Shown here piece after piece: positions 1 to 48,333 of a stretch of 64,000 nucleotides of DNA. Source of the stretch: Mayamaea pseudoterrestris. Its lineage: Eukaryota. The position numbers and the translations under genes were made by a program. Location: positions 1,178,001-1,242,000 of the forward strand of contig BROI01000002.1 in assembly GCA_027923505.1 (NCBI GenBank). Reading direction: 5' to 3'. How positions within the stretch are numbered: position 1 is the stretch's first letter; each line of letters begins with the position of its first letter. The notes under the pieces are model-generated. The model was not told the DNA's origin and made no database searches. It saw only the letters and a list, made by a program, of their open reading frames with translations.

Positions 1-68
1 TATGCTCGTGCGCCCCCGGCGACGTCTAGGTTCGCGTCAAGCGACTGGACTAGATCGTCATTGTGACA
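1..68 (-). repeat. Partial LTR, cut by the window edge; identical to 4438-4505
   Basis: Bases 1-68 match 4438-4505 exactly (offset 4437). Identity stops at ...CATTGTGACA, the TG start of the LTR on the minus strand. Confidence 0.9.
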
Positions 69-3000
69 CAGTGGGTAGCCCCTCTTCTTCGGAGCTTTGG
101 GTGCCGAGTTGGAAGCTCTCTTGGAGTCCACCTTCGGTGTATACGAACATGTCGCCTTCGGGAGAAGCTTCGACTTGTGGTAAATCAAGACGGATGTTTG
201 GGTTAAGATCGTCTCGACGAGCCGTTACAATGCTTCGGGCGACAACTTGATGTGTTTCCTCGTCCAAGACCCAGTACGTTAGAGCATCACCGACGTTATC
301 AGCTACCCCGACGAAACGTCCAGCGCGCTCATTGGTTTGGTTGAGCAATGTAGAGTTTGCGCTGTATCGAACGGGCTGCCACCAGTGGTAGTTGAGGTAG
401 GCAGAGATATCGGGTACTTCATTGTATACCTTTTGATATGGGGTCATGCCACCGAGACGTGACTGGGACATGAGGGCGAGTAGAGCTACGATGTGTAGAG
501 TGCATAGCAGCCAGGTTGGTGCAGGCGATCCGGTTCAATCCATGTTGACATTGACAGTGCGCTCGACGTCGCCGATAACGCGTTCCGCTGGATTCTGCTG
601 TTGGTTTTCCGGTTCGCTGACCCAGTGCTTACGGATCATAAACTGGCGTTCGATTTCTCGAATCGCTAGGCTGTTTTCTTCCTTGGCTCCGTCTGATATT
701 AGACCGAGTGGAGCACCGCAATCGTTGATAAACTGCATGAGCGTCGACGGAACTTGTCCCTTGTTCGCCATCGGGTAGACGCGAATCAATCGGCTCTGCA
801 TGCAAACGTATAGTTGCGCTGCTTGGCATCCGGCATGTCCAGGAATACCATCGTTGAGTGCGGGTGTGTCGGAGAATAGTGTGTCCATTGCAACTTCTTC
901 AGGTAGTCGACGAACATTCGCACCCGGGAAACGAGTACGCAAATGGCGTCGCTGAGGAAAACGTTGCTCGGCGCGATAGAATTGGGTAGTGTTCTTGAGA
1001 GTCTCTTTGATACGATCGGTGGGTAGAAATCCGAAGTTGGGACGAAGCATTTGGTAATCTGGTCGCGTAGGAACCACAGTGCGTGCCGGTCGGCCGGCTA
1101 GTCCAGAATATGGATTGCCTCCAGCTTCTACAATTGCGGCATTGACCTGCAGCTCGTACGGATCGTACATTTCCCCGGCAGTGTCTTCGTATTCGAACGT
1201 TGCGTCGTTGGGGTTCTGAGCATGGCTTGATCCGGATGTCGATATGGTTCCGCGTGAGAGTAGTGAGGGTAGTGAAATGTCATCCTGTTGTGGGTTCGTG
1301 TTGTAAGAAGCGTCGTCGGGTACAATGTCGGCAATGCGCTCGGATGGACCCTCGGTTTCGACTTGCATAGGGTCCGACTCGTCGCTGAAGTGCTCCCATT
1401 CGTGGGTTTCGAGTCCGTTCCATGAGACGACGTTGAGTGTTTCGACTGAAAGGTCTTCGGGATATTCGTCTTGCGCGTTTCCGTTGACTTGGGTGTTGTT
1501 GACTAGTAGTGTTGGCGCTTCGTGATCGTCCGTCGCGGTTTCAATTTCCGCTTGGATCGAATCGTCATTAAGGTCTCCATCGTACTTTGACGGATCCCAA
1601 GGCGTGTCTGCTGTCATGACGACGTGCGGCAACGTGTCGAACTCGGCGTCGGTGAAATGATGCATCTTCAAATGGACCAAACCGTTCTGGACCGTGAATG
1701 GGATCAATGCTCCTTCGGGTGTAATCATGAGCTGCCGTCCGCCAAGTGCGCTTGCCTTGTCGAATACCTTGTTTCCGAAGTCCTCGAGCTGAACGACCGA
1801 ATGAATGGTTGCGTCGGTTCCTCCGTCGGCGTACTGGTAGAAAATGCCAATGACGTACCCTTCCGTCGTCCAGATCTTGGCGGCGAATGTTCCGATGGGT
1901 AGTCCTTGCATCATGTGATTGTCAATTCCGGTAACGTCGGCAAACTGAGTCGTCGATCGATCCAAGCAAATCATGTCCTTACCAGCGATCGAACCGTTGG
2001 CACCGCGATCCATCATGGACGGGCTTCGAGACGTAATTGCACGAGTGACATGGAACTGTGACGCGTGTGGCCCTTCGGTTGCCGGAGTATTCATACCCAT
2101 AAGCGCATCTGCGTAGGATACGTTATGTGTAGCGACATGGTTTGTAGAACGACGCGTGACGTTGGTTGCGTTGGCGGCGATACATGTTGTATGTAACGGC
2201 CGACTCGCGCTTGATACACTGGTGGAGTAGATGGCTGGCTTCCCAGCGGTCGAGCCTTGTTGCTGAGACTGAAACAGCGCACGGCGGTTCCACGTGCTGG
2301 TGTAGTTCCGACTGTAGGCCGTGTAATCGCCGACATGGGTGACATCGCCGTCGACTCGCCGGTGGGAAGCTGAATTTGTGGAGTTGGTGGTGGATTGGTG
2401 TTGTTCGTGCTGGCTTCCGTTGCGTTCAGCTGCAGGCGCGCCGCTCCGCTTCTCGGATTCGGCGAGTTTCTGCCTTATGAGCTTCGCGTTGCTCCTCCGG
2501 CCCAAGAGAACCATACATCCGGCTCGACTCCGTTGCGGCGCTGCAGAAGGATTGGTGCACTGTCCGCGTCCACCACCTCGTCCGAAGTTACCTCGGCCGC
2601 CGCGTCCACCGCCGCGTCCAGAACCGCGACCGGTTCCGCGTCCGCTGCCATTTCCACGACCGTTTCCGCCTTGGCTGCTGCTTGGAGTGTTGCCGCTAGT
2701 CGGTGTAGTGCCTCCGGTCGGTGGAGTACTCGCTTGTTGGATGGATTGGTGGATCTTCATTTGGCGTTTGCGTGCCGCTTTGACGTCGTCGGTATCGCGA
2801 GCGAACTCGATGAGCTGCTTGTACCAGTCTTCGAAGCTTTGATCTTGACCTTGCGCGTTGAGGATACGACTCGCCGAACTGATTTCTTGGCGAAAGGCGT
2901 CATTCCAGCGAACCGATTCGGACAACCACTTCTTGCGCGTCGCGTCGGGGACTGTTTCGCCGGTATAATCTTCGTAATCGAGCAAGGCATTCTCCCATTG

Positions 3001-3855
3001 AGTGAACCACGCAGTGTACGTACTGCCGTGGTCGTTCGTCAGTTTCATGTCGCGAACTCTTGACTCGGCTCGCTGCGCTGCGCGCTCGGCGTTCTTGCCC
3101 GTCAAGTACATCGTGTGCATTTCCTTGAAGCACTCGTGGGCCGACCCGTCCTTGTGGCGACGAATGATCGGGATGCAGTTGGCGACTTTGCAGTATGAAG
3201 TGATGATGTCGAATGCTGTGGCTTCTTGCGCTTTGAATACCTCGAGATCTTCGGGCGAAAGCGTTGTCGGGTTGAAATCCGGATCGAAGACTCGCTCGAT
3301 GCCTTGGTTCTTGGCCGTTGCGAACGTCTTGAGCCACCATTGACGGAATTTGTACTCGTCTTTGAACTCGGTGTATGCTTTGGTGTCGACTCGGACGCGA
3401 GATTTGTACTTCTCGGCCTCGGACTTCTCGGGAACGTCCGTCGAGCTGACTCGTTGAATCCGACTCATGTCGCTTTGGAATAGAGACTCTTCGGGCGATT
3501 CGGTTGCTTTGATGAGTCCTGCGAATGTGAGCGTCGCCCATTCCTTGAGTTCGCGCTCTTCCGATGCCCATTGACGAAGGCGGGTAATGGTTCGAATAAC
3601 CGTGATGTGCGTTTTGGATTCCTTCAGTACCGACTCGATGTCCTTGATGGTCAGCATTAGGAATGGCTCCGTGAGTAGACGTCCGTCCGGGAGGAGTGAC
3701 TTGATGGCGACGATGACTGGAAGCTTCATGAACTTGTCGTTGTTGACGGTCTTCTGCTTGTACATGCTTTTCAATCCGACGGCGAGCGAGTTGTCTTCCG
3801 CGTCATCTTGCGTGACATTGGGTCCGTCGGGAGGATCATCTTCGACGACGGTCAT
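58..3855 (-). pseudogene. Copia gag-protease-integrase polyprotein with an in-frame stop and apparent frameshifts
   Basis: Gag (FRQWWLKTFATAKNQGIERVFDPDF), RGG-rich tract, protease-like MDRGANGSIAG, and integrase core AMDTLF / ISDGAKEE / PENQQQNPAERVI. After a TGA at 535-537 the same frame continues TGSPAPTWLLC...TPYQ...PDISAYL...GRFVGVADNVGDALTYWVL (integrase C-terminal region). Confidence 0.85.
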
Positions 3856-4014
3856 GTTGTTGATTGATTGGTACGGGATGAATATATACCGCGAGAATAA
3901 TCGAGGAAGTCGATTCTATCCGAGCGATGCTTGCAATTCGACTCGGTCTTCAATCCCTCCGTCTGCCGGACTAGTGTAGATTGAAGCCTCGGACAGGAAA
4001 TGAACGAGGGATGT

Positions 4015-4023
4015 CCGCTGCCA
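4015..4023 (-). other. Primer-binding site TGGCAGCGG
   Basis: Starts with TGG one base after the LTR terminal CA on the minus strand (...CTACA T TGGCAGCGG). Confidence 0.65.
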
Positions 4024-4024
4024 A

Positions 4025-4505
4025 TGTAGTGTGCAACAAAACGACGGGAGTGGTCGTCACCAGCGCCCGAGAGAGTTGATTGTAAAGACCAAGACTGTGT
4101 GATCTGACACGATGCAGTTCCAGTTCGTACGGCTGCAACGATTCCTCACCCTCTGTAGTCGGTTTCCAAGTGAGCGGGATGATCAGTCCTTTACCTTGGT
4201 TTATCCTACAGGGGTCTTATCCTACAAAACGCTAGTTGATTAAGCAGTTCTCTAGAAAGTGAGTTGATTTACGATCGGTCGAGAAAGAGCGATTGATCAG
4301 ATGGCTCTTTCAAGACCATTCACGATAGTGAATACTAATCTTGTTTAATCGTGCCTGCGGCTGGCACACATGCAATATTTCAATGACGTAGTTGTGAGTA
4401 GATGTCTTTTCTGGTACCGCAACGGAGGTTCGAGTACTATGCTCGTGCGCCCCCGGCGACGTCTAGGTTCGCGTCAAGCGACTGGACTAGATCGTCATTG
4501 TGACA
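4025..4505 (-). repeat. 5' LTR, about 481 bp, TG...CA termini
   Basis: Outer end fixed by identity with 1-68. Inner end inferred from the TGT...ACA termini and the adjacent PBS. Confidence 0.8.
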
Positions 4506-4519
4506 AGCAATGGCTCACC

Positions 4520-5062
4520 ATGGAGGCACCCTCTTTGGCTCCAAGAATGTCTCCAACCACTCACCCCAGCTGCTTGCCATCAAGTGATTCAAGCAACAAG
4601 TCTAGTGAGTTGCCTTGCGCAAACCCAGTCTCCGTCCCAGTACAGCACCTATGTTTCACCCTGCAAGCTCCTTTATGTCTCCCAGCACTCATCTCAGCAG
4701 CATGCCATCAAGTGACCCAAGTGCCAAACCCAGTGCATCACCTAGCGCTGCAAGCATGCCCTCTCCCAGTAACTCCCAACTTGTTTCCAAGCACTCACTC
4801 CAGCTGCTTGACATATTTAAGCGACAAGTGCAATGAGTTGCCTTGCACAAGACCCGGTCTCCTTCCTTGTGCAGCACCCAGCTTGTCACTCTCTGTGGCT
4901 CCCAGTTTGTCTCTCAGCACTCATCCCAGCAGCATGCCATCAAGTATGCCATTGAGTGATATAAGCGACATATCCAGTGAGTTGCCTTGTGCAGGACCCA
5001 GTCTCATTCCAGTGCAGCACCAAGGTGATCACCCTCTGTGACTCCCAGTTTGTTTCAAGCAC
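4520..5062 (+). pseudogene. Decayed tandem repeat resembling Pro/Ser/Thr-rich (PSxxPS) cell-surface protein coding sequence
   Basis: Recurring CACTCAYYYCAGC..C.TG units near 4558, 4687, 4792 and 4918, and GAGTTGCCTTG at three sites. Translates to PSSMPSSDPSAKPSASPS only when frames are switched. Confidence 0.5.
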
Positions 5063-15660: not shown

Positions 15661-15796
15661 ATAGCATTTCCTCACTGCGAGTATGCAAAATTTTGTGGAT
15701 GTACGTACAATAGAGAAAAGGAAGATGACTATAGATTAACATGGCATTGGTGCAATAATGGTTACTGCGTCAGTCAGCAAAATCATCAAGTACGAA

Positions 15797-17286
<1,490 letters not shown>

Positions 17287-17659
17287 TTAACTAGTCTGAT
17301 TTTAGTAGATTGATGAAGCAAAGTTAAACACAGCGTCGATCAAGAGGAAGCAAGGGCTGCTGTCGAGAGCAGAGCGGCGTGACGAGATGGAAGAATGAAC
17401 GGACTTGATGTTTCCAAGCTGACGCAGGCCCACGTCATCATCATCTACTCCCGTCAAGCTCATTTGAACCTTATTACTATGGCTTCCAAAGTACAAAAAC
17501 GCCGACGAGTATTTAACGCTGACGTTTCGGCGTTCCTCGTGCAATTGGCGCGACCATGACGCTGATAGATTCATCGATTCGTCAGCGCTACAACGACCCG
17601 CAGGTAGTGGTCTCAATAGCACAATACAATCAAGTAGCTGCAACTCCTACATCTATACA

Positions 17660-18460
17660 ATGAAGTTTGCAAGCAGTGTCGTCATCGCATTGACTTTTGC
17701 GTCAACAAGCCAAGCCTTTGCTCCGCAACGAGCGTCATTCGTCGCACAACAAACACAACAAAGCATTGTTACTCCAGCAGCACAACCTCTCTACAACAGC
17801 AAGGACATTTACGACGACGACGTCGACGAAGAGGTCGAAGAACTCGTCCAAAAGGAGCTTGCCAAGAATGCTCGCATGAGCAACTTGCGCAACGCCAATG
17901 GCGTGGAATACGCTCCCTGGATGCGACTGTCGGAGGAGGATGAGAAGCGGATTCGCGCCACGGTGCGCGAAAAGACGGCCCAACGAAAACTGCGGCGCGA
18001 GCAGGAGCAGACGGTGCAGGGATCCTTGCTGCGTGACAGTCAGGGGCAGGAACTTTCGGGGGTTGGTTTGAGGAGTCGGGTCATTGATGATGAGAGTGTG
18101 GAATTGGAGTGGGCCACGTCGTCGGAGGCATCGACGCGAGGGTTTATTGTCAAGCGTCGAGCGGCCAAGACGGAAGATTTTCAAGTACTGGCTTCGTATG
18201 AAAGCTATGGACCGCTGCAGTCGCAGGGAGTGGAAGGAGGTGTCTATCGCTACTTGGATGAAGGTGTTGGAGCTGGTGGCTGGGTATATCGCGTGACGGA
18301 ATGTGAAAGCAATGGCGCCGAAAACGATCTTTCGCAATGTCTTGTCAATATTGAGACCAAGGAGGAGCAGCAAGGAGCCCTCATTACACTGGCAGCCTTT
18401 GGAGCTGTGGCTGTTGCCGCTGTCATTGCTGGGATTACGCTTGATCCGGTCCAGTACTAG
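17660..18460 (+). CDS. Plastid-targeted protein with FN3/Ig-like domain and C-terminal TM helix
   Basis: Signal peptide ending SQA-FAP (ASAFAP motif), beta-sandwich pattern VELEWATSSE...GFIVKRR...YRYLD...WVYRVTE, hydrophobic C-terminus. Confidence 0.8.
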   Translation: MKFASSVVIALTFASTSQAFAPQRASFVAQQTQQSIVTPAAQPLYNSKDIYDDDVDEEVEELVQKELAKNARMSNLRNANGVEYAPWMRLSEEDEKRIRATVREKTAQRKLRREQEQTVQGSLLRDSQGQELSGVGLRSRVIDDESVELEWATSSEASTRGFIVKRRAAKTEDFQVLASYESYGPLQSQGVEGGVYRYLDEGVGAGGWVYRVTECESNGAENDLSQCLVNIETKEEQQGALITLAAFGAVAVAAVIAGITLDPVQY

Positions 18461-18656
18461 AAAGATTCACAACTGCATGCTATTACGGAAGACGAAATGA
18501 AACGCGGACGAAAGACGGATTCATCCGATACGCTGTATACTCATACACAGTAATCTTTGCTATAAACTTTATGATCGTGTCCTTTGACATTCACTCTAAT
18601 ATAAATGCACCGTAAATAATGGAGATATCGCAAAGCTGGCTGGGTGAACTTCCATT

Positions 18657-19820
18657 TTAATACGATACGGGCGGCAACGTAGGATTCGCCTTGCGGGAGC
18701 GTTTGTCGCGATGCTCGTCCGTAGAATGCGTCGTCTGACGGTCGCAGTGGCCGCACCACTTCTTCTTCCTCCGTGAAGGAGAATCCGAAAGACTATCAGA
18801 GGCTTCAGATTCGCAGTCCGGAAACAGCGGCTTCCATTGCTGTTGGGAAACGAGTTCTTCATATGAGGCAATGGCAAGGCGGAACAAGTCTTGAGGGAGA
18901 CATTTGTTGGCAGCCATGTGCTGGTCCCGGTCATGTGGGGACATTTGACAGCAAACTCCCCATGCCTCGGAGTGAAGTGAATCAAATTTCATGAAGCTCT
19001 CGATAAACTCCATTTTTATTCGAGAGTCTTCTCCACTGGCCCTCAAGAGATTCTTGAAGAGTCTGCAGGTTTTTCGATGATCGTACGCACCAGCATCCTG
19101 GACGATAGTGATAAGATCGAGTACCTTGATGCAATACGCGGTTATGTTCTCACCAACGAAATCAGTGGGAAGAATGGCAATGGCTTCGTCTTCAAGACGG
19201 CGATGCATGTCATAATTATGCTGGCGGACCATGGATAGGATACGCCAGTACGTGACCGCAAAGGAACCAGGTTCATTGCCGGGTGTGAGATGAATGAGGC
19301 GTTTGAGCATCGTTGGATCAATTGAGTTGCGAATGAAGATGGTCGCTTGTACGTCGTTGATCTTGTCGTATTGATCATAGGTCTCCTTCGGCTCCGCAAA
19401 AGCATCTTCGACCATTTTCACGTCGCGGAAAATACCGCAATGGCGCGGCAAAAAGACGACACTGTCCTTGTCGCGAGGATCATGTCCATACGCAATCGTA
19501 TCCATTCCAAACTTGACGAGGTGATCGCTCACTTGATGCTCCCACATGAGAACGTCGCCAGTGAACGTGAGCTTGACCGGCAAACCTTTGATGCGATCCG
19601 ACTGGGTGTATCCACCGTAGACACCGCTAAGGGGGCGCATCATACCGTCTGAATTAGGGCGCTTGTGTGTATCATGCTCGTTGAACTCCTCAAAGTTTCG
19701 GCTGGGCGTTCCGCCGGTCCACGGGATGAACTCCTTCTGAGATATTTGCAAAAGGCCCCCGTGGATTGGCTTTGGCGGGAGGAGTACTTCCTCTTTCACA
19801 TCCTGGTTTTTGACGGACAT
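18657..19820 (-). CDS. Stand-alone copia-type Gag-like protein
   Basis: Motifs WTGGTP, HLVKFGMDTIAY, YDQYDKIND...FIRNSID and PTDFVGENI resemble diatom copia Gag as recalled. C-terminal C-x2-C-x5-H-x4-H knuckle (WCGHCDRQTTHSTDEH). Confidence 0.7.
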   Translation of the reverse strand: MSVKNQDVKEEVLLPPKPIHGGLLQISQKEFIPWTGGTPSRNFEEFNEHDTHKRPNSDGMMRPLSGVYGGYTQSDRIKGLPVKLTFTGDVLMWEHQVSDHLVKFGMDTIAYGHDPRDKDSVVFLPRHCGIFRDVKMVEDAFAEPKETYDQYDKINDVQATIFIRNSIDPTMLKRLIHLTPGNEPGSFAVTYWRILSMVRQHNYDMHRRLEDEAIAILPTDFVGENITAYCIKVLDLITIVQDAGAYDHRKTCRLFKNLLRASGEDSRIKMEFIESFMKFDSLHSEAWGVCCQMSPHDRDQHMAANKCLPQDLFRLAIASYEELVSQQQWKPLFPDCESEASDSLSDSPSRRKKKWCGHCDRQTTHSTDEHRDKRSRKANPTLPPVSY

Positions 19821-20413
19821 ACTACAATTTTCGTCTGCCTTGAAACAATGGCGGAAACGACGAGAGAGAAACAAGCAGACGAGAGAGGCTAGATTGTTGG
19901 AGCAAGGATGCCGTTGGTCGAGTTACCTCAACCGAAGAGGCACGCTGTCACGGCCGTGAAACCCATCACGATAATAATTTTACAAGTCGCCGAGGCGTTA
20001 CGGGACACTTACACATACATGACTGTGAGAAGCTTTACCTCAATTAGATGGTGGGAGACTGTCTCAATGATTGGCAGTAGAGAGCTTACTAGTTGAGCAC
20101 CTGGATCAATGAAGTAAATACGCAAAAAATCGCCACGTTGACCGCGTCTTACTGCTGGCTCTGCATGAAACAAACAAGCAAGCTTGCCCGAGCTAGAATA
20201 CCGGTTATTCCTTCTTCAGCAGCAGCGCCAATTAAAAAAGGACGGACGACATACTGCGTAAACTGGTAGCCTTGCCTACGGTAGTATTGTCGACGAGCAG
20301 CGAGCACTAGCGCGAAGAGGGTCAAGATAGAATAGCTTGGATGTCGCAGCGGTTAAAAAGAGTCCCGGAGAGACTTTTCGTTTAATGAAATCGACGCCAT
20401 CACTTCTGTGACC

Positions 20414-21472
20414 ATGGCAAGTTCCTTGCTCGCCTCGTACCCGCAGTCTACGTGGGATGCGGCAGCAGTCAGCCTCCGAGACAATTCGGGACTCGCTCTC
20501 ATTGAATTAGACGATATAACTCTCCAGCAAATATCCAAGACTGCCTTTGAGTCGACCCTTTCTCACTTGGCCATGTTTGCCAACGATTTTTCGCAACACA
20601 TTTCTCCGTTGGCCGATGCCGCTCACGCGACTGGCTACCATGGCGCAAGCGATGCGTCTAGTATGAGTCGGTACAATCAGTTTCGCGAGGGACTCGTCTT
20701 TAGTGATGGAAACAAGCTCAAGCAATGTAGTGGTGATGCTCATGCCGACGACGACGACGACGACGACAGATTCAAATATGCAAGCCTGCAAAAGTACTTG
20801 AATGAGTTGGAAGACATGCTACACTGCATCGCGGAACATGTTTGCAGAGGCATTGAACGAGAGTTGGGATTGTCAGAGGGATGGTTTCAAGCCAACTTTG
20901 GACCGACGCGTTGTAGCAGTCAGTGGCACGTGAAGCGATACTTGCCTCCAATAGTGCAAACTGATGCCGACACCGTCACCGAGGACAATTACTCGACTAA
21001 AAACCTTTTACCAATTCATACTGATCCATCTTTGATATCCATCATTATCCATGACCGTCCTGGAAAACAAACTGGAGCGCAGGGACTACAGTACAGCCAC
21101 ACTGGTGCGGATGGAACGCGCCAGTACATAAACGTGTCACACTCGGGCCACGCCGTGGCCGTCGTCTTCGTTGGATCCGTCCTTGGTCACGTGACGGGCA
21201 ACTACTATCCGGCGTGTCGACACTACGTGGCGCCGCCAATGCAGCAACAGCATCGCATGGCGGCCACACTCTTTCTGCGACCTTCTCCACATGCTCGCCT
21301 CGTGGTGCCGCCGTCCCTGCAACTGCGCCACGTCAAAATGAAGCGAAACGACATGACGTTTGGGGAATGGAACATGCGAGTCTCGAAGCGATACATGAAG
21401 GGCAATGGTAAGACGTTGGCATGCAACGTCGACGGTAAGCAGGCGGAGGCGAAGCAGTGTGCTGACGGATGA
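20414..21472 (+). CDS. 2-oxoglutarate/Fe(II)-dependent dioxygenase, IPNS-like
   Basis: HTDPSLISI (HxD), GLQ, distal His in ACRHYV and RMAATLF. Confidence 0.85.
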   Translation: MASSLLASYPQSTWDAAAVSLRDNSGLALIELDDITLQQISKTAFESTLSHLAMFANDFSQHISPLADAAHATGYHGASDASSMSRYNQFREGLVFSDGNKLKQCSGDAHADDDDDDDRFKYASLQKYLNELEDMLHCIAEHVCRGIERELGLSEGWFQANFGPTRCSSQWHVKRYLPPIVQTDADTVTEDNYSTKNLLPIHTDPSLISIIIHDRPGKQTGAQGLQYSHTGADGTRQYINVSHSGHAVAVVFVGSVLGHVTGNYYPACRHYVAPPMQQQHRMAATLFLRPSPHARLVVPPSLQLRHVKMKRNDMTFGEWNMRVSKRYMKGNGKTLACNVDGKQAEAKQCADG

Positions 21473-21566
21473 ACCTCGCAACGTGCGTGAAGGAAACTGC
21501 AGCTACTATTTGGCAGGAATGGGTAACAAAGTCAAAATATGCATTATAGTGCAAGAGCAAATATTG

Positions 21567-24500
21567 CTACGGCCACCAAGAAAGATCGCCTAGGACTTCA
21601 CTACCCAGCGCCGTGACGGCCGCTTCCGAATCTCGAAGACTTGATCGCAACTGCCTCATGATGATTTCCTTGTGTGGAAGAATCGCTTCCAACACCAAAA
21701 GATTCCGATTAACGCTCGTTCCTGCGCGACGAACGAGTGCCTGCAGAAGCTTGACACCAGCCAGTCGAACTTTCCAGAATTTGTCCTTCAACGTGCCTTC
21801 AACAAATTGCACAATCATTGAACTGGTGGATGGCAATCTCAACTTTTCATCTTGGCATACTTGCACAAGTTTAGCCATGCATTCGGTCGAAGCCTGACGA
21901 ATAGTCCAAGCAGTCTGCTTTTCGCCTCCGAGCGACTTGAGACGAAGCAGTGTTTCAGATACGTCGTTTACTTGCTCTTCGCCGAATGACTGACTCCCAA
22001 TATCTTGAAAAAAGAGTTCTCCCAAACAGTCCAATGCAGTCGCAACCAAGACTGGTTTTTCGTCAATTTGATCCAAGAAATCTAGCAACCTCGGGGTCAT
22101 GAGTGGGTATAAAGATTCCTTGGCGGCGGTGCCATCGCTTGACAAACTTGATAATAGTGTTTTTAAGCCTCTTAAAGCACTTGCACGGTAGGGGAGTGAA
22201 TAGTCAGAATAGCCTTGTGGAGACGTCAGCCCCTGACTGAGAAGCAACCTACAAAACCCAGTAAACACCACTGGAGAGAATGTGCGACGTTCGGTTACAT
22301 TTCGTTCGTTTCCGCTTTCCTCCGCAAGAGTTGCATGGCAATCTTGCATGTCAATCTGCTTGTCACCCTCCGTAGCATCCTTCATAGGTTCTGATAGGTT
22401 GTCGACCTCTTCCACAGTAGCTTCAACGCCATCTTCTCTACTGCGAAGAAATGCATCTCCTACAATCAAATCATCAGGACAGGCCGATGACAAAGCCACA
22501 GGCTTCCACGGACATGGATTATCAATATCGGTCCAGCCGTTTAAGGTTTTACTTTCGCTTTCCTTCGATACTTCAGCAGTAATCCATTTGGAAGCGAGCT
22601 GAACAGCTGAGTCAATGACATCTCCTTTTCCAGTCCACAATCTTGGCTTACTAATTGATATAACGCACTCTTGCAGCGCCAAAGACGCTGCCTCTGCACG
22701 AAAGCGAGCTCTTCCTATTTTTTGCGGATTGTCAGTCCCACGCGGTGCAGATTGTTGGAGTGGAACAACAACCCCTATGTCAGACAGCTCGTTCAGCGCC
22801 GTTGCTCCAACTATTCGTCTAGACCATGATACATCTCGAATTGCACTAATGCAAGCGTCGACGAGTTTATCCAAAATCCTTTCTTCCAAACGGGTACCGT
22901 ACGTTGTTGAAGCTGAGAACTCAGATATACACGATCCGCCTTCGTCCCAAACCTCTCTCCAATACGTTGCAGTCTTCTTGTCCAAGTCTTTGCATCCTAA
23001 GAAGGCTGTGGGAAGAATTGTGTCGCCCCAAACGTATCCGTCGGCAAAGTGTTCCGGTGCCCGCAAGGCTATTGCTCGAAGAGCGGCTGCACTCGATCGG
23101 CGAGAGGCAGGGTCGTCACTGTTACCTGTGCTACGACGGTAACTTTCGCATGCTCGCAAAGCCAGCGAGCGAACACTAGCACCAGGACAAAGGGCCGCAA
23201 GGTTTCCGAATGCATGAATCATTTTGTCCTTCGAATTGTCGCCGCGCTCTCTTTCACTTGCGTAAAAAAATGCGCGAAGCAATCGTACCGAAGGGTTCGA
23301 ATTAGGCGGCCCCGAGAATCGAAATGCGTTAGGCACAGTTGAACACAGCGTCGAGACAGCGTCTGCAACAGCAGCTCGCGTTGCAAAGCCTGCTGATAAG
23401 CGGAGCGCGGAATCAAGTTGAGATATTACAGCATGCTGATGCTTTTCGTCCAGACAAGGAACGATATCAAGACATTTCGATAAGGCACTCGCGAGTGGTG
23501 AACTCTGCGCCATTTGAAGCCGAATTCTCTCGAGGCCTTCTTGATCATTCGTCCTCAGTTGTAAGTAATTAAGCGCAGCTGGTTCAAGTCCAGACATGGC
23601 CAAGAGAAGCGACCTAATCAGGTCGGGCAGCACGGGGTGTAGCAGTGTCGAAATGGAAGGCAAACTTATCACTTCAATAAGGGTACTGACACAGATTCCA
23701 GTCGCCTCAGCACATGGCTGACTGAGACCATATCGGCAAAGCCAACCAAGTGACGTCGCTGCAGCAGCTGCGGCATCTCGCTGGCGCGTCGATCTAACCT
23801 CGTCTCGCATCCTTTTGCGGTGCGAAGGAGCTTGGTCTGGATCACAAAGTCTGATAGTTAACGCCCTCACACCGCGAGCTAGACTCTCTCCAGCCTCCCT
23901 TACCGAGCCGCGTACGTCATCTAGTGCTCTCGTTGATGTCTTCCATAGACGTAGCAGACGGGTGGCTGCGGTCGGTGTTGTACTGTTATTGAAGTCATCT
24001 TCATCGAGTAACGGCCCTCCTCCACCAAGATCCGACCACTCTCTGCCCACAATTATGTCAGCAAGAGCACCAAGCGCTCCGCATCTTGCCCTCCAAAGCT
24101 TACTTGATGTGTCGTCAAGAAGCGCGTCAGTAGTTGACGCAAAGTGTTGAGTAATCATTTCCCGCGCCTCAGCTCCTCCGCCAGTTAGACCAATCCAAAG
24201 CGACTTTATCTGCTCTCTTGTTTGTTTATTCGGATCAAAACGAGCACGCAAGAGGCGAGGAACGAGCTTCCCCATATGAGGACGAAGTATGTCTCTCATC
24301 TCCTTTGTATTCGAACTAGGTCCAAGCTTCAAACTTGAGCTTAAGAGAGATGAGGCATGATACCGATCTCGGAATTCCTCCGTTAACCAGGCTGGATGCG
24401 AAACAGATAGCAAGAAAAGCGTGTACAGCAAGTCGTCACGTCCGATTGCCACACTTACTGCAGCCATTTCTCTGTAAGCTCCCAGGGCTGCTTCGCTCAT

Positions 24501-31358: not shown

Positions 31359-31761
31359 CGAGAGAGAGACTTCAATGAGCGCTTTTACAGCAGCTCTTGA
31401 ACATGCATATTGATGGAGAGACGGCGAATAAATTGACGATCACTGTGGATCGCAAAATAAAGATAGCGTCTAACGAATTAGCCAAAGATTAATGTAAACA
31501 TGCTTTTCTACTAGGTGAGTGTTTTTGTGCATTACCGTGATGATTCTGGAACCTTGCGAGACCAAACGATAAGCAAAGTCATCATCACATAGCTAGCCGC
31601 ATAACCGTTACGACATACACTTGATTGCCATGCCGCCGCGAAAGCGCGCCACCATGAGTGACAGTCCTCTCACATGCATCTTCACTTTACAGTCTCAACC
31701 ATTTGCTTTTGAAACAAATGAAGACGTACTCGACTCAAACTCTAAAATAATATTTATAGAA

Positions 31762-33501
31762 ATGTCTTCATCTACGAACACCAGAAACATTCCACGCGTC
31801 GCATCCGACGACAGATCCGATCTTTCAACAGCAGCACCGGATCGATCATCTTCTCCACCATCATCAACGACTAATACGCCATGGTGCGCACCTCGGCTTT
31901 GGCTGGCCGTCCTCGTTGGAGTCGCCGTCGGAGGCTCATTGGTGGCTTCCATGCGAGATGCTCGTCAAATTTCCGCCTACTTTTCGGACGCTTCGTCGGA
32001 ACATGATGCCATGCTGTTGGAGCAGCAGCGGCAAATGCACGAAGCGACGCTGCCAAGTAATGTCAAGAAATCAACGATGAATCATGCCGACAATGACCAA
32101 GACAGTCAGGATAGCAGCAACAGAACAAAACCAGAGCAACCAATGAATATCGTCTTTTTCTACGCCGACGACTGGACCATGAAGACACTTGGCTTGCTGA
32201 ATCGCCATGTTCACACGCCAAACATTGACAAAATGGCCAAGCGGGGCATGCTCTTTCGTCGCAACTGCGTCACCACCAGTATTTGCTGGCAGTCGAGGGC
32301 CACCATGATGACTGGCTTGTACGTTTCCGTGCACAAGCAGTTGAGAATCATGGACAACAACATGTTCAACAAGACGGTGCAATGGCCTAATACACTCTAC
32401 CCACAACTCAAAGCCAATGGATATCACGTTGGCTTTATTGGAAAGTGGCATGCCATATACAATTCCGATTTTATGAGCTACACGTTTGACCACTTTAACG
32501 AATACTACGGCGATCACTGGATGGACCGCAACGGCCGGATGCGACACGTGACGGAACTGAATGGCGCCGATGCCTTGCACTACCTGCGCAACGTGAAACC
32601 TCCCAATCAAAAGTTTGCCTTGACAATCTCCTTCTTTGCCACACACGCGGACGACTCCATGCCTTATCCACTCCAATACAATCCCATGCCGTATACGGCT
32701 CATTTGTATGCCAACGCCACCATTCCACTTCCAAAGACTGCCACTGAAAATCACTGGCGCAACCTGCCGTGGTTCTTTTCCGAGTCGAACGAAGGACGAG
32801 CACGGTGGCGGCAGCGCTACGATACGTACGAACACTATCAAACCACCATGAAGCGCTACTACCGCATGGCCACCGAAGTGGATGACGTGGTTGGTGCCAT
32901 CATTCAGGAACTAAAAAAGCAAAATCTCTACAATCACACGTTACTCATATTTACCACGGACAATGGCAATCTACATGGGGAGCATGGGTTGGCGGACAAG
33001 TGGTATCCGCAGCAGGAGTCGATTCAAGTGCCACTCGTGATACAGGATCCGCGCATGCCGCGCCACAAGCGTGGCACCGTCAATGACGACTTTACCTTGA
33101 ACATTGACTTGGCGCCTACCATACTGGCCGCGGCTGGTATTGCGGCTCCCAAGCACATGCAGGGACGTGACGTTGCGCAACTGTATTTGAATGCTCCACA
33201 AGCCAAGGCGAATTGGCGTCAAGACTTTTTCTACGAGTGGTCGCAAGGTCGACCGGAGGATGCAGAAGGTCATGGGTCTATTGATCATATTCCTGCCGTC
33301 TTTGCCTTGGTGCAAAAGGATTACAAGTACTTTTACTGGCCACAAACAAAGTACGAACAAGTCTTCAACATTATGGATGATCCGTTTGAGGAAGTGGACT
33401 TGTTCAATGAAACGTCGCAAACGGATTTGAACAAGCTGACGCAGCTTCGGGCGAGGTATTCGTACCTCAAGACGCTCAGTCAGGGTGGGAGCTACGTGTA
33501 G
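31762..33501 (+). CDS. Formylglycine-dependent (S1) sulfatase, type II membrane anchored, paralog 1
   Basis: FYADDW, TTSICWQSRATMMTG, GKWH, TTDNG and HGLADKW; N-terminal TM helix. Confidence 0.93.
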   Translation: MSSSTNTRNIPRVASDDRSDLSTAAPDRSSSPPSSTTNTPWCAPRLWLAVLVGVAVGGSLVASMRDARQISAYFSDASSEHDAMLLEQQRQMHEATLPSNVKKSTMNHADNDQDSQDSSNRTKPEQPMNIVFFYADDWTMKTLGLLNRHVHTPNIDKMAKRGMLFRRNCVTTSICWQSRATMMTGLYVSVHKQLRIMDNNMFNKTVQWPNTLYPQLKANGYHVGFIGKWHAIYNSDFMSYTFDHFNEYYGDHWMDRNGRMRHVTELNGADALHYLRNVKPPNQKFALTISFFATHADDSMPYPLQYNPMPYTAHLYANATIPLPKTATENHWRNLPWFFSESNEGRARWRQRYDTYEHYQTTMKRYYRMATEVDDVVGAIIQELKKQNLYNHTLLIFTTDNGNLHGEHGLADKWYPQQESIQVPLVIQDPRMPRHKRGTVNDDFTLNIDLAPTILAAAGIAAPKHMQGRDVAQLYLNAPQAKANWRQDFFYEWSQGRPEDAEGHGSIDHIPAVFALVQKDYKYFYWPQTKYEQVFNIMDDPFEEVDLFNETSQTDLNKLTQLRARYSYLKTLSQGGSYV

Positions 33502-34221
33502 CGCATAGATGGCAGCATCACATTGTGCTTTATGTGGGCCGAATTACAGACCGGATCTGATGCGCGAGCGAGGCAATGCATTCGTTCCCCTTGAGTAGCA
33601 CAAGAGCAAGCACCCAGGCCGTTTCAGCAGTTCTTCTATTTCGGCAAGCGTGACAGTGCGAGTTACATTTCAACTCCGCAGTAGCATAAAATAGCTACAA
33701 CGACTAACCCGAGGTTTGAGATGGGCTGCGCGAGAAGACTCACAAACACCAGCTTACAGCTAGCAACGTCATTCGATGATTAACAAATCAACCAGGTTAC
33801 AAATCCGTTATCGTAAAAGTTACTTTATACATGATCGTAGCAGGCTGCTAGTTGCGGATAATGGCTCCCATGGCGCGACGACAGCACCGATGGCCAGCGA
33901 CGTGTATCTCGGTCGCCTATTCAATCTCAAGGTAACGCATCATCATCGGGGACTGCCGCTAATGAAAAAACCACTTGGTCGGAAGATGAGCAGCGTCTGT
34001 TTCTTCTCGGTTAGTACTATAATAGGGCCCAGCGCCAGGAGGTGACCGTCGAGTAAATGAGCGGAAATATGATCCATGTTGCTTTTCGTAAAGACCACCA
34101 GCTGCAATGGTAGTCGTTCGTTGCCGACAATTCATAAAGCATCCTGTCTTGACGATATGTGCTTTATTTAATTTGCAATATGGTCTTTCATCCAAGCACT
34201 TGCACCGACACTCAGTTCGTT

Positions 34222-35955
34222 TCAGACGGGCAGGCCTCCTTGACTGGCAGCCTTCATGAACTCGTATCGCTTCTTCACTTTAGCCATTAGGTTTGGTTCA
34301 CTAAGAGCCAACAATTTGAATACATCATTTTCCTCCCATGGATCCTGCGAAATGTTGAAAAGCTGCTCGTAAGCAGCGGCCGGCCAGTAAAAGTACTTGT
34401 ACTCCTTTCCCACCAAGGCAAAGACGGCGGGTATAGTGTCGTCTCGCCCGTGCCCCGTGGCGTTTTGCGGCTCCCCCTGGTTCCACTCGTAGAAAAAGTC
34501 CTGCCGCCACGTTTTGGTCGCCTCCGTCGCATTCAAATACAATTGACTAATGTCGCGTCCCTGCATAAAGGACGGTGGTTGAATGCCAGCAGCTGTCAAT
34601 AAAGTTGGCGCCAAGTCGACGTTCAACGTAATTTCATTATTCACCGTCCCTCGCAAATGCATTGGCATGCGGGGATCCTCAATCACCAAGGGCACTCTGA
34701 TGGATTCCTCGTGTGGGTACCACTTGTCGGCCAATCCGTGTTCACCATGAAACATGCCATTGTCAGTAGTAAAAACTAGCATGGTCTTTTCGTAAACGTT
34801 TTGCGCTTTCAGTTCATTTATGACTTGTCCAACCACGTCATCCACCTCACTCGCCATGCGGTACAACCGCTTGATGGTGTATTGATGGCGGTCGTAGGTA
34901 TCAAATCGGACGCGCCAGCGGTTGCGGGCCTCGTTGGCCTCGGTGAAGAACCATGGCATGGCGTTCCAGTGCTTTTCCGTGGCCGTTTTTGGCATTGGTA
35001 TTGTTTTGTTTTCGTACAAGTACTCGGTTTGTTGTTGCGGTTCAAATTGCTTCTCAAAGGGCGCACCATCCTGGGCGTGCGTTGCGAAGAATGCAATCGT
35101 CAGTGCAAAGGATTGATTCTGTGGTCGACCGCTACGAAGATACCAAAGGGCATCCTGCGCGTTTTGCTGCGTCACGTGTTGCTTGCCCATGAAGTGATGC
35201 CCAAAGTAAAACTTGAACCAGCTAAAGGCAGCTGCGAATGCATTCTTGTCGTAAGAATTATGGTACTTGCCAACATAACCAACGTGATGGCCATGTGACT
35301 TGAGTAGCGGATACAGTGTTTCATGCCACGGCACCGTTCCATTGTACATGCTCGTCGAGATAATCTTGAGTGCCTGGTGAACGGCCGATGTCATGCCTGT
35401 CATCATGGTGGCTCTCGACTGCCAGCAAATGCTTGTTGTGACCGCGTTGCGTGGGAAAAACATGCCGCGTTTGGCCATGCCGTCAATGTTTGGTGTGTGT
35501 ACGTGTGGATTCACCAAGCCAAGGGTCTTCATGGTCCAGTCGTCGGCGTAAAACAAGACAATGTTGAGTGGTTCATGTTTCTTGTCAACATCTTCCGCTT
35601 TCAATGGTTCACTTTTCGCAAACATTCGTCGCTGCACTTCCTCCATAATGGATCGATTGTTGGCTCTGGAAGGAACCATATCTTCGAAATTGCTCCAATC
35701 GAGCATGCTGCTGCTCGGCGAAAGGGCTTCAAGTGCCTTGAACGAGCGATTGAAGGAGGACAAGGTTCCCAATGTTACAATGAGAGAGATCCATGCTCGT
35801 TTGCTTTGGTGGCTACTGCTGCTTGATGCTGATGCCGACGAAATTTGTTGCTTGGTGGGCGATGTTGAAAACGACTTTATTTCTTGTTCGACTTGCTCCA
35901 TCGGAACAGCATCAGCAGTAGCTGCTGCAACGCCGTTACTCCTGGAAGACGCCAT
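34222..35955 (-). CDS. S1 sulfatase, paralog 2
   Basis: FYADDW, TTSICWQSRATMMTG, GKYH, TTDNG and HGLADKW; N-terminal hydrophobic segment. Confidence 0.93.
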   Translation of the reverse strand: MASSRSNGVAAATADAVPMEQVEQEIKSFSTSPTKQQISSASASSSSSHQSKRAWISLIVTLGTLSSFNRSFKALEALSPSSSMLDWSNFEDMVPSRANNRSIMEEVQRRMFAKSEPLKAEDVDKKHEPLNIVLFYADDWTMKTLGLVNPHVHTPNIDGMAKRGMFFPRNAVTTSICWQSRATMMTGMTSAVHQALKIISTSMYNGTVPWHETLYPLLKSHGHHVGYVGKYHNSYDKNAFAAAFSWFKFYFGHHFMGKQHVTQQNAQDALWYLRSGRPQNQSFALTIAFFATHAQDGAPFEKQFEPQQQTEYLYENKTIPMPKTATEKHWNAMPWFFTEANEARNRWRVRFDTYDRHQYTIKRLYRMASEVDDVVGQVINELKAQNVYEKTMLVFTTDNGMFHGEHGLADKWYPHEESIRVPLVIEDPRMPMHLRGTVNNEITLNVDLAPTLLTAAGIQPPSFMQGRDISQLYLNATEATKTWRQDFFYEWNQGEPQNATGHGRDDTIPAVFALVGKEYKYFYWPAAAYEQLFNISQDPWEENDVFKLLALSEPNLMAKVKKRYEFMKAASQGGLPV

Positions 35956-36333
35956 GTACATTCGAATACGTTTGTCTCCTCTTTCTGCTTCTATAGCATC
36001 CAACGTAAACTTGATGTATTGTACGAAGAAAAGGTGCAACTGTGAGTGTCCGGGTCAAAAGCGCACCTCTCCGCTGGAGTTCGAGTCGTGCAAGAGCTCG
36101 TATTTCATGAAAGGCGTTTGAAAGCGTTATGGAATACGGAGTCGAACAACTTGGCGTCATACGGGACTAATGGTTCACGAACCGTGTCACGCTCGGACGC
36201 ATGGCAACGATCACCGTCCATTCTTTCAAACATTGGATCGAATCAAGCCATCACTTTGGTTTCGACACGATCTTCTGCTCTTGTCACGCAAGTCTTTACA
36301 GTGAAACAAAACAGTCAAACCAATACAACAAAC

Positions 36334-38576
36334 ATGCTTCTTGCACAAGGATCAAGATTGTCTATGTCGCACGTTTGGCTGCTCAGCATCATGGCCAAGA
36401 CTGCCATGGCGTGGGAGACGAAAACATTGGCAAAGACGACAATGCGACGCGGATGGACGACCAAACTACCCATGCAGCAGCAGCCAGCCTTGCAATATTG
36501 CAGATTGACATCTACGTTGAAAATGTCCGACGTGGAAGACGATCCATGGTACACTGACTTTACGGTGGATCCAGCCACGACGCGTCGCCCGCGCGAGCAG
36601 CCGTCCTTTGGCGGCGGCGGCCGCTCCGACTACGGCAGCAACGATCGCCGGCCGCAGTATGGACAGGACCGGCGACCACCGCGAGACTCATATGGCTCGT
36701 CATCGTCAGCTCGCCCCGCCCGCGGCAATTCTCCGACGCGCTACACGCGCGACACGAGCCGCGACGACTCGCAGGTCGACGAATCTGCCGTCGAACGCTT
36801 GATTCAGGCCCGCATGGAGGCCCGCGGCCGCCGCGACTTTATTGCCGCCGATGCCATTCGCGACGAGTTACTCTCGAAACATTCCGTGGCGGTATCGGAT
36901 CGTGATGCGAGTTGGAGAACGGGAGCGTCGTCTTCGGGAAGTGGATTAAAGTATAATGGTGATCAGCGAGGAAGCAGTGATCGCTTTGGTGGCGGCGGCG
37001 ATCGCCGTGGACGAGACTTTAATGAAGGTCGGCCGCGTCGGCAGCGCGACTTTGGCGTCAATGGACATGACTATGAGCAGTCGGCGGATGCCGTCGGAGC
37101 GCCAAACCTTTCCGACTTGGAGGACTCTGAAATTCATGACTTACTGGCGCAGCGATTGAGGGCGAAAATGAGTCGCGATTTTAAAACGGCGGATCGTATC
37201 CAGTATGAGCTACTGGATGCTGGTGTATTTGTACATGACTCGCTCAAGGAGTGGAGAGCGGATGGTGTATCGTTTTCGGAAATGGGTGGCAGCGGTCCTC
37301 GACCCAGCGGACGAGCCGAACGACCTGAGCGGCGTCGCAAGAGCTTTTACGAGCAATCACCGTACTCGGCGCAGATTGATGAGGCCGATGTGGATCAGAT
37401 TGCTCGCATGGTGGCCAAGCGTATGCGATGCAAGGAGAAGCGACAGTATGATGAAGCTGATGCCATTTTGAAGGAACTGACGGATGATTACAACGTTCAG
37501 GTGGACGATCGTCTGCGTGAATGGAGCGTTGGCGGTGACTTTGGTACGTATTGAGTGTTTGAATAAGAGGTACGAGACGTTACTTTCATCTTTGCCTTGG
37601 CTAATACCATTGACCAACGACAGGTGAGGAAGCCAATCAGCAGCGAGAAATGTCGGAAGCGTACAAGTCACGAGGCTACACCAAGTCGGCAAGCTCCAAG
37701 TCACTATCGGATGCTAATGAGGAGATTGTTACGCAACTAGTCGAGGAACGTGTACAAGCCAAAAAGAACCGCAACTTTGACCTTGCCGATGACATTCGCG
37801 ACCGATTATTGGAGGAGTTTGGAGTCTACATTCAAGACAAGAGCAAGCTCTGGTCAGTTGGAGGTGACTTTACCAGTGAGGGTGGCGGCACCCGCAACGA
37901 CGCCATGTACACGCGCGTCGGAGGTGGAGGTGAGACTGTGACGGACGAAGACTTGGCGACGATTACCGAAATGGTCATTAGCCGATCCAAGGCGAGAAAG
38001 GACCGAAACTATGACGAGTCTGACGCAATTAGTGACATGTTGTATGAAAAGTACAAGGTCAAGACGGATGACAGCAATAAGCAGTGGTGGATTGAAACGG
38101 ATGGGTTTACGCAGGAACCTTTCTCTCCTCGTGCGCGAGTATTAAATGAGGAAGAAGTAGTTGCTGTGGAAAACTTGTTGCTGGAACGTTTGGACAAGAA
38201 GATGGATCGCGACTACGATGCGGCGGATGCAATTCGTGACGAGCTCCGAGACCTTTACAATGTGGAGGTGAATGACAGGACACGCTCCTGGAGGACAATG
38301 GAGGATTTTACGTCTGGTTCAAGATCTGCGAGACCGTCGCCAAGGCAAGCTCAAATTGTCGACGACGACGACGACGACGAATTCGACGACGTTGATGAGG
38401 ATGACGAGGAACATGTTATCACTGAAGCATCAACATTTTCTACATCAAACGAGTCAGAAATGAGCCGTGAGGAGCTCACTGCCCTGACCATTCCAGAGCT
38501 AAAGGAAAAGCTGCGAGTGGCTGGCAAACCAGTCAGTGGCAAAAAGGCAGAACTTGTCGACAGAATACTAGAGTAA
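36334..38576 (+). CDS. Protein with six CysRS anticodon-binding-domain-like repeats and a C-terminal SAP domain; intron 37544-37623
   Basis: GTACGT...ACAG intron joins the ORFs in frame. Six copies of R-x3-[RK]-x4-[FY]-x2-[AS]D-x-I-x3-L...D...W. SAP motif LTIPELKEKLRVAGKPVSGKKAELVDRI. Confidence 0.85.
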
Positions 38577-38805
38577 ACAACTAATATGTATCTAGCTAGC
38601 AATAATAAGCATGGCGGTAGATGTCTGCTCATATTGTACGGTGCTTTTGAAAGAGTCACTGCCAAGGCAGTCATCTGATAGCTAATTCAAGCGCATCGTA
38701 GTGGTTTTGCTTGATGACCGAGCGTGACATCCGATTTCGTTTCGTTCCATTTAAATTGATCGTGCCGACAAAGTGGCTGCCCTTGGCTCCAAGAAATCGA
38801 CAGGC

Positions 38806-47192: not shown

Positions 47193-47921
47193 GCTGCTCT
47201 ACTTATTGAAGTATTGATTGATTCGGAGATTAGAGAGTCTGGCTTGTTTAAATCAGTGTTCAACTAGTCACCTACATTATTTGATCTGGAGCAATTTCTA
47301 GTTTTTGATGGAACTGGTCAAGCGATTTTGTCACGCTGTTCGCGGCGATGCGAAGAATTCCGAGATGTTTCAAAACTAGTGCGACGATCGTTGCGACATG
47401 TTTCCTTCTTACTGTACAAGCTGGATTCGCGCGCGCGATACCTCACGTAGCCCTACCAGCGTCGGTCCGGCAATTGCTTTCCACCGCACGTTCTAGCGTG
47501 CCGTACCACGGCCAGACGGAGGAAAACGAACTCTCGCCACGACGAGCTGATCGTGATCCCGCCGGAATAAAGCTATAACTAGGTGAAGCAGCAATATAAA
47601 CTATACAGGCTTATACAATACAATTATCCAGTGTATACGGCGCAAAAATGAAGTCAATTGAAGGTATAATGACTATGTGGGACCGCTGCAAAGTCAACGA
47701 TTCGTTTGCGCTTTCCTTACCAGCGCCAAAAAGGGAATACGATGCGTCAGATAATGATCCAAATAAAAAATCCAGCTATCAACGCATTGCTCATCATATA
47801 ATTAACACGGTATTGACGCAACTTGCAGAAATTGTACCTTTTAGAGGTCGTAAATGGAGGCAGCAACCAGAGCGACATTTTCATGAGCTCTTCTGAGGCA
47901 AATAAACTCGCCATCCAACGC

Positions 47922-48000
47922 CGTTAAGGCCACTATTATTCATCAATTGCATCTATGGCATGTGTATGCTCGTTTTCATCCAATAATAGTGGCCTTAACG
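47922..48000. repeat. 79-bp element with perfect 19-bp terminal inverted repeats, copy 1
   Basis: CGTTAAGGCCACTATTATT (47922-47940) and AATAATAGTGGCCTTAACG (47982-48000) around a 41-nt core. Confidence 0.9.
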
Positions 48001-48254
48001 CCTCATACTTGTCTTCGTCTTTCCAGTTTTGTGGCGGCGGCATGGAACGAGCACTTGCCCAAAACGTTTATATAGACGCACTAGCCGATCCTTTGGTTGA
48101 CGAATCGCTAAATATGACATCTCCATGATCACGTTTGTGTAAGGACGACTTTGCGCCGGTGTCGAAAGAGCTCTTTGGTTTGATCGAACCAAATTCTGCC
48201 GAGCATGCTCGAGCAACATACCACTGCGAGGAGATTTACTCATGATCCCTATGT

Positions 48255-48333
48255 CGTTAAGGCAACTATTATTCATCAATCTCATCCGTGGCATATTAAC
48301 GCATGTTGCGGTCCAATAATAGTGGCCTTAACG
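48255..48333. repeat. 79-bp element with 19-bp terminal inverted repeats (one mismatch), copy 2
   Basis: CGTTAAGGCAACTATTATT (48255-48273) and AATAATAGTGGCCTTAACG (48315-48333) around a 41-nt core. Confidence 0.9.

Follow-up and report, generated by a model that had tools for sequence, protein, structure and literature searches.

Introduction

The TR-GAG elements of plants are non-autonomous LTR elements with a gag-only body and terminal repeats. In the mobile elements of diatoms, tandem Zn motifs in Gag have been reported for CoDi6.2 to CoDi6.5 (Maumus et al. 2009, PMC2806351). Gag genes taken over by the host were surveyed by Wang and Han (2021), who counted 14 co-options among animals, plants, and fungi; copia is the source of four (Crtg9, 10, 12, and 13, in plants and fungi), and Arc, dArc, PEG10/RTL, and PNMA are derived from gypsy (PMC8321522). 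Co-option of the Crtg genes was judged by synteny in two or more host families or a host-matching phylogeny, by selection, and by expression, and the survey gives no protist co-option and presents protists as possibly under-sampled (PMC8321522). We found no domesticated diatom gag in the literature searched. A further system is DRT2/p22-p18 of Saccharomyces cerevisiae (PMC10951436; PMC13709905). Each of 40 strains carries an intact DRT2, and its dN/dS is 0.84 (PMC10951436); the Drt2 protein is a CA-CTD remnant that is 91.5% identical to its target and does not extend its action to a Gag of 78.9% identity (PMC13709905).

Here, we analyzed a solo gag in a 64,000-nt stretch of the Mayamaea pseudoterrestris genome (the window), which an earlier note, made from the letters of the DNA, had read as a possible domesticated capsid gene. 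Its protein product, P0001, is homologous to the CoDi-type Ty1/copia Gag of diatoms, whereas those elements have a pol, LTRs, and the first knuckle, none of which P0001 has. As in the TR-GAGs, the coding content is gag only, but the locus has no terminal repeats and shows no sign of further copies. Like the co-opted gags, P0001 is a solo gag with a predicted capsid fold, and the structures of PEG10, PNMA2, and dArc are among its fold matches; however, the co-opted gags keep their synteny from one host family to another and evolve under selection that can be measured (PMC8321522), whereas for P0001 no synteny was found and strong purifying selection is rejected over codons 13–160. Compared with DRT2, the locus is likewise a Ty1/copia gag remnant at a fixed place, known from one species only, perhaps transcribed, and carries a 1-bp deletion 5' of the CA-CTD. 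Unlike P0001, DRT2 has a near-identical living target and a demonstrated restriction, while the nearest Gag found for P0001 is only 32% identical; furthermore, P0001 in the assembly retains a full CA, whereas Drt2 is a CA-CTD remnant.

Results

The Gag Locus and Its Neighbours

The gag is located at 18657–19820 on the minus strand, where the ORF reading of the window gives a stop-free frame of 387 aa, from an N-terminal PxxPxxGG motif to just beyond a Zn motif. This motif, WCGHCDRQTTHSTDEH, has the form C-x2-C-x5-H-x4-H and occupies residues 356–370, with 17 residues remaining before the stop. For the assembly, the uninterrupted 387-codon ORF of the earlier note is correct; the sequencing runs additionally show a frameshift allele at 19409. 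The stop of the gag and that of the convergent plus-strand neighbour (17660–18460) are separated by 196 bp (18461–18656), in agreement with the ~200 bp given earlier. This gap contains the 3' end of the neighbour, for which an RNA-like contig (run X4) extends to 18551, and it is without pol, LTR, or poly-A. Retrocopying of spliced gag RNA, an idea from other copia elements, was considered as an origin of the locus and set aside; a poly-A tract is absent after the gag stop. At the opposite end, a head-to-head gap of 593 bp (19821–20413), in which no LTR copy was detected, lies between the gag ATG and the ATG of a divergent host gene on the plus strand, a 2OG-Fe(II) oxygenase (20414–21472; Pfam PF03171, E 2.5e-9). 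The long ORFs of the window have a median gap of 410 bp, and the gaps flanking the gag are ordinary by comparison.

The convergent neighbour encodes a conserved diatom protein, one relative of which carries the database name fibronectin type III domain-containing, and it served as an internal selection control. The CpG observed/expected ratio (o/e) of the gag is 1.14, close to the 1.11 of the window, and differs from the 0.17 of a decayed repeat at 4507–5060, as the earlier note had described; that of a young element at 535–3855 is 1.40. The gag is also unlike the gag of this element, as had been stated: the best match to that protein has E=3.0.

Copia Gag Origin and Capsid Fold

A phmmer search with P0001 gave 414 matches at E≤0.001, and the best match besides itself shared only 32% identity. 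This nearest sequence is P0003 (GKY98968.1), a hypothetical protein of Mayamaea pseudoterrestris (E 2e-39, residues 11–332). We scanned 24 matches with Pfam, namely the long ones and the top ones among the best 150 of the 414, and found gag_pre-integrase in 15 and RVT_2 behind gag_pre-integrase in nine; the long homologues contain protease, integrase, and RVT_2 in copia order. The succession of gag_pre-integrase and RVT_2 in the matches identifies the family as Ty1/copia Gag-Pol, and P0001 derives from the Gag of a diatom-type Ty1/copia Gag-Pol. The copia gag homology on which the earlier reading was built is thus confirmed by the 414 matches. P0001 itself gave no Pfam family at E≤0.05.

The AlphaFold2 model of P0001 has a mean pLDDT of 88, which was driven by an alignment of 106 sequences. 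In a VIA-align comparison with 48,161 chains, the first match was the Drosophila Copia capsid (8vvw_A, Z 9.0, rmsd 5.8, 182 of 184 aligned), covering residues 75–327 of the model. Further matches included the PEG10 CA-CTD (7lga_A, Z 7.6) and the Drt2 CA-CTD (9rxy_A, Z 7.4, 87 of 90 aligned), and PNMA2 and dArc also appeared in the next rows, interspersed with unrelated helical bundles. Because a Z of 13 is recommended for helical models and 9.0 falls short of it, the Copia match was weighed together with the sequence evidence. The capsid fold match came from VIA-align only, and Foldseek of the model against the PDB and BFVD returned nothing at E≤0.001. As a lead only, the ESM Atlas gave feature matches of 0.94 to fungal clusters named 'Gag protein', with 162–167 features in common. 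The capsid fold prediction that the earlier note had named as a check therefore points to a capsid, with the Copia structure on top. The modelled capsid (CA) is two-lobed and corresponds to 18840–19598 on the minus strand (residues ~75–327), including a C-terminal lobe at 18840–19217 (residues ~202–327).

In front of the capsid, a module of short strands is encoded at 19598–19781 on the minus strand (residues ~14–75), recognized in the alignment by a GGL...WTGGxP motif and modelled with a pLDDT of 91–98 per 10-residue block. The homologues (P0003–P0151) have the same conserved N-terminal module before the capsid, in the form PxxPxMGG...AWTGGKP, and it is confidently modelled. No Pfam family was found for this module or for the second Zn motif in the proteins scanned.

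A Trimmed Nucleocapsid

The proteins of this family are arranged as a capsid, a canonical CX2CX4HX4C knuckle, a basic linker, and then W-C-x2-C-x6-H-x4-H; among the retrieved members, there were 72 matches to the first motif and 58 to the second. From P0001, the canonical knuckle and the basic linker, ~95 residues, are missing in frame. The distance between W329 and the second Zn motif is 26 aa in P0001, compared with 82–151 aa in all 41 measurable homologues, and a Gag-Pol profile (17 polyproteins, 2034 positions) aligns at 16–346 and 450–481, with 347–449 unmatched. The junction, placed by profile, spacing, and haplotype contigs at 18776–18801 on the minus strand, is crossed gap-free by contigs of both haplotypes. 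Taken together, the profile match and the spacing indicate that the capsid gene is whole, that the nucleocapsid has been trimmed, and that no other part of the element is left.

The Zn motif that remains in P0001 (18711–18758, minus strand; modelled with low confidence, pLDDT 50–60) is the second of the family, W-C-x2-C-x5-H-x4-H in this copy; it is one residue short, as the x5 lacks a conserved Trp of the family's x6. Behind their second motif, the homologues have a hydrophobic segment, which P0001 lacks. The knuckle that the earlier note saw near the stop is indeed there, but it is the second Zn motif and not the canonical nucleocapsid CCHC. RNA binding appears less likely with the canonical CCHC knuckle absent, and its deletion, judged from the sequence, would weaken the RNA-binding host role that had been suggested.

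Absence of Pol, LTRs, and Further Copies

No direct repeats flanking the gag were found among the 20 largest repeat families of the window, and BLASTN of its upstream flank against its downstream flank gave chance words only (11–25 nt, E≥2.6). The profile of 17 related Gag-Pol polyproteins found no pol near the gag; because it missed the integrase-like end of the unrelated 535–3855 element, this result excludes the pol of the gag's own family only. The repeat listing, the flank BLASTN, and the profile are therefore in line with the earlier description of a gag with no pol or LTRs, and the first two with that of a gag without flanking direct repeats.

In runs X1 and X2, we searched for gag copies of at least 80% likeness with other flanks by loose contig ends, in contigs that can drop records. 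No loose contig end lies inside the gag, and hence no such copy was seen. The protein cluster of P0001 has one member. A near-identical full-length element elsewhere, which the earlier note had set against its own reading, was not seen either, with the copy number judged from the run contigs.

Two Haplotypes and a Frameshifted Allele

Of seven public runs, four (X1, X2, X4, and X6) were aligned to 15700–21700 and gave 396 difference rows, plus 53 rows with indels, over these 6 kb, indicating a very heterozygous organism. The pattern of X1 and X2 is that expected of DNA from a diploid with very high heterozygosity, with two contigs each across 18735–19227, and the gag sits at one locus common to two diverged haplotypes. 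Since both haplotypes span the knuckle junction gap-free, the insertion and the knuckle deletion predate the haplotype split.

A 1-bp deletion at 19409 is carried by contigs of all three runs that cover it; the contigs of X1 and X2 span 441 places with 440 letters, and that of X4 spans 274 with 273. Read on the window's letters, the deletion shifts the frame from codon 138, and the first stop follows 88 codons on. It belongs to an allelic cluster at 19406–19424 (minus strand), together with six nonsynonymous substitutions in codons 133–139. In the C-terminal lobe of the CA, 136 nt at 18941–19078 (minus strand, codons 248–294) are replaced on one haplotype by 145 unlike letters in X1 and X2, a net gain of 9 that leaves the frame intact. 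This lobe is the most diverged part between the haplotypes, with 7% in addition to the replaced segment. Across codons 198–362, the aligned parts of both haplotype contigs have no gap; the frame is judged here by gaps, and stops are not visible.

The share of the window's words in X1 is 0.81. A rough simulation with assumed switch points gave 0.83 for a block mosaic of two haplotypes and 0.59 for a third haplotype, and the window's open frame probably combines blocks from both haplotypes. Such a mosaic open frame need not exist in either real chromosome; the heterozygosity and the mosaic assembly bear on every 'intact ORF' claim for this genome.

Transcription

None of the seven runs is recorded as RNA. 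X4 alone skips the TrpRS intron at 16658–16763 (GT-AG, minus strand), and it was treated as RNA-like on the basis of this joint only. Its gag contigs cover 19065–19265 at a depth of 3.8 and 19392–19665 at a depth of 2, and the latter carries the 19409 frameshift; gag stretches without X4 cover were not counted as evidence on transcription. These contigs, in which strand, level, and DNA carry-over are indistinguishable, give a hint that the gag is transcribed. The expression check proposed in the earlier note thus has a mixed outcome, as thin gag contigs are present in an RNA-like run but the one over 19409 is frameshifted.

Selection on the Gag

The SNP counts were taken from 40 of the 396 difference rows, and all gag SNPs listed there lie upstream of the C-terminal lobe. 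In the X1 contig over gag codons 13–160, all 12 differences comprise 10 nonsynonymous and 2 synonymous ones; four of the 12 are CpG-type transitions, too small a number for a judgement on methylation. Among the rows listed, the neighbouring coding regions have 16 synonymous and 2 nonsynonymous differences (both in the first 16 codons), and the convergent neighbour has 9 and 2, respectively. The difference between the gag and its neighbours is significant (Fisher p=1.2e-4; p=0.018 after removal of the codon 133–139 cluster). The neutral expectation for the gag is 74–79% nonsynonymous, and 10 of 12 fits neutrality. For codons 13–160, omega≤0.3 is rejected (p<0.01), while an omega of 0.5, the case of one dead and one constrained allele, is not (p=0.07).

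The window allele has T38, a residue of none of 98 homologues, at a site where K is the family residue (65) and that of the other allele; its G112 likewise occurs in none of 105, and V is the residue of the family (35) and of the other allele. P0001 agrees with 43 of 69 conserved columns (0.62), compared with a median of 0.85 for 65 homologues, and its terminal branch, beside P0003 and P0065, has a length of 1.16. Departures from the consensus number 14 in P0001 against 5 in its nearest relative (p=0.064), and 11 against 8 in the comparison with P0016 (p=0.65), which shows no excess.

The neutral survival of an open 387-codon frame has a probability of 0.001–0.17 under an assumed 2.5–5% divergence per lineage and assumed indel rates, before allowing for the picking of an open frame. 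One gap letter was found in the ~930 bp gag contigs versus 8–16 in the 372–382 bp upstream pieces. The scarce gaps, the frame-keeping replacement, and the low neutral survival suggest that selection acted on the frame to some extent, either formerly or in part. A high omega is compatible with function, as DRT2 itself has a dN/dS of 0.84.

Orthologues and Synteny

A word-based search of proteins of 212–678 aa returned P0001 alone, with nothing among shorter proteins; because the search missed homologues of 25–30% identity and near length, it rules out close orthologues only. Metagenome contigs scanned with P0001 gave 40 pattern matches, none of which was confirmed. The convergent neighbour has relatives at 80, 73, and 67% in the database in which no P0001 orthologue was found. 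Around distant orthologues (49–62%) of this neighbour, none of 14 loci has a gag match, and in the two where the adjoining gene is visible (L003 and L008), a TrpRS gene, not a gag, stands tail-to-tail directly behind the neighbour's orthologue. The synteny check named earlier therefore turned out negative among the proteins, the metagenome contigs, and the 14 distant loci, and the synteny by which co-opted gags are recognized was not found for P0001 in these sets, which leaves room for a gene kept at the genus level.

The TrpRS gene and the gene at 17660 (together 15797–18460) are head-to-head in the window and tail-to-tail in L003 and L008:5001-7031, so that the linkage is kept with the orientation flipped. 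Run X6, which has another organism label, was considered as evidence of an orthologue and rejected; it contributes one 179-bp contig at a depth of 2.5 with four differences, two of which are common with X1 and X4.

Discussion

A member of the copia family once stood at this locus; its pol, both LTRs, and the CCHC knuckle are gone, and the capsid-coding part is whole. The locus is probably, though by no means certainly, an old and immobile single-locus relic of a Ty1/copia gag that is now under little or no protein-level constraint. About half of our belief in such a relic goes to a 'retired' gene that was once useful, and half to a relic that was never useful and is open by chance. The domesticated host gene proposed in the earlier note is disfavoured by the lack of an orthologue or synteny, by nonsynonymous and synonymous SNPs of 10:2 against 2:16 in the neighbours, and by the frameshift in one allele. 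In the case of a retired gene, selection probably kept the frame open for some time, and the likeliest reason is that a knuckle-less Gag would have poisoned the particle assembly of its own family. Such a restriction would need a closely matching target, and none is seen any more; selection may then have lapsed, after which amino-acid changes would have built up at a nearly neutral pace and a frameshift arose in one allele. The gag is probably read at a low level from the promoter region it would have in common with the 2OG oxygenase.

The same remnant could also be a living restriction factor of the Drt2/p22 kind, in which the C-terminal lobe of the CA, translated from Met171, 197, or 205 as an internal start or within the knuckle-less Gag, poisons the particle lattice of a copia family. 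The loss of pol and knuckle would have left a dominant-negative Gag, with the C-terminal lobe kept in frame in both haplotypes and diversifying between them, also through the swapped segment of 46 codons; the upstream frameshift and an unconstrained N-terminal half would be harmless, and the allelic divergence could reflect conflict. The match to the Drt2 CA-CTD (Z 7.4, 87 of 90 aligned) is consistent with this, as is the history of DRT2, whose own 1-bp deletion breaks the 5' GAG and leaves the CA-CTD ORF intact (PMC13709905). Similarly, the only frameshift seen here is at codon 138, codons 198–362 are gap-free in the aligned parts and the replacement keeps the frame, and all 12 scored SNPs are upstream of the C-terminal lobe, with methionines available at 171, 197, and 205. 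However, the haplotypes diverge most in the C-terminal lobe (7% plus the replaced segment), and no close target was found: the nearest Gag is 32% identical, and no contig of at least 80% with other flanks occurs in X1 or X2, whereas Drt2 needs a near-identical target. We favour the relic and consider a restriction factor active today unlikely.

A host gene of the Arc/PEG10 kind, forming full-length capsids or binding RNA and constrained on one haplotype while lost on the other, a kind of loss that is frequent in highly heterozygous genomes, would fit the complete two-lobed capsid predicted by the model (mean pLDDT 88), the host-like spacing and CpG content, the RNA-like contigs, the low neutral survival of the open frame, and the omega of 0.5 that was not rejected. 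It is nevertheless decidedly unlikely: the open allele has the unique T38 and G112 at conserved sites, the RNA-like contig over 19409 has the frameshift, P0001 has neither the canonical knuckle nor a second motif of full length, and no orthologue or synteny was found. A coding content of gag alone and an undepleted CpG content, as in the young element at 535–3855 (1.40), would be expected of a still-mobile, TR-GAG-like element or of a recent fragment of an active full-length family. The absence of terminal repeats, the lack of loose ends in the gag at 80% likeness in X1 and X2, the presence of the gag at this site in both diverged haplotypes, and the protein cluster of one member make continued or recent mobility very improbable.

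If the locus is a relic, it matters little in itself; it is a clean example of how a solo gag that looks open because a heterozygous assembly was collapsed can pass for a domesticated gene, and phased alleles are needed to check 'intact' ORFs. If it restricts transposons, or did so until recently, their capsid-based control, known from yeast and animals, would extend to the diatoms, in which copia-type elements are the main mobile ones, and this would be a case caught between capture and loss. As far as we searched, a Drt2-like co-option would, if true, be without a described precedent among protists.

Other Features of the Window

A young copia-like element of another lineage occupies 1–4505 on the minus strand, with identical 68-bp repeats at 1–68 and 4438–4505, the LTR being cut by the window edge. 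By eye, its 1106-aa ORF comprises Gag, a protease-like motif, and an integrase-like end, and stops at 535; Pfam finds nothing in this ORF, and there is no space for RT before the 3' LTR. The element looks internally deleted or non-autonomous. Adjoining its LTR, a degenerate array of ~106–128-bp units is located at 4507–5060 (CpG o/e 0.17). At 47415–48490, there is a MITE-like unit of ~1.08 kb with 34-nt inverted repeats (97%) and an internal 100-nt direct repeat. Three sulfatase genes at 31630–40731, two on the plus and one on the minus strand, share 71–82% DNA likeness and surround two genes with short CysS_C-like and SAP domains. Finally, a 1499-aa protein encoded at 58987–63486 on the minus strand matches LRR, CHAT-like, and NACHT/STAND NTPase domains, in most cases close to the cut-off or under it, in an immune-receptor-like layout.
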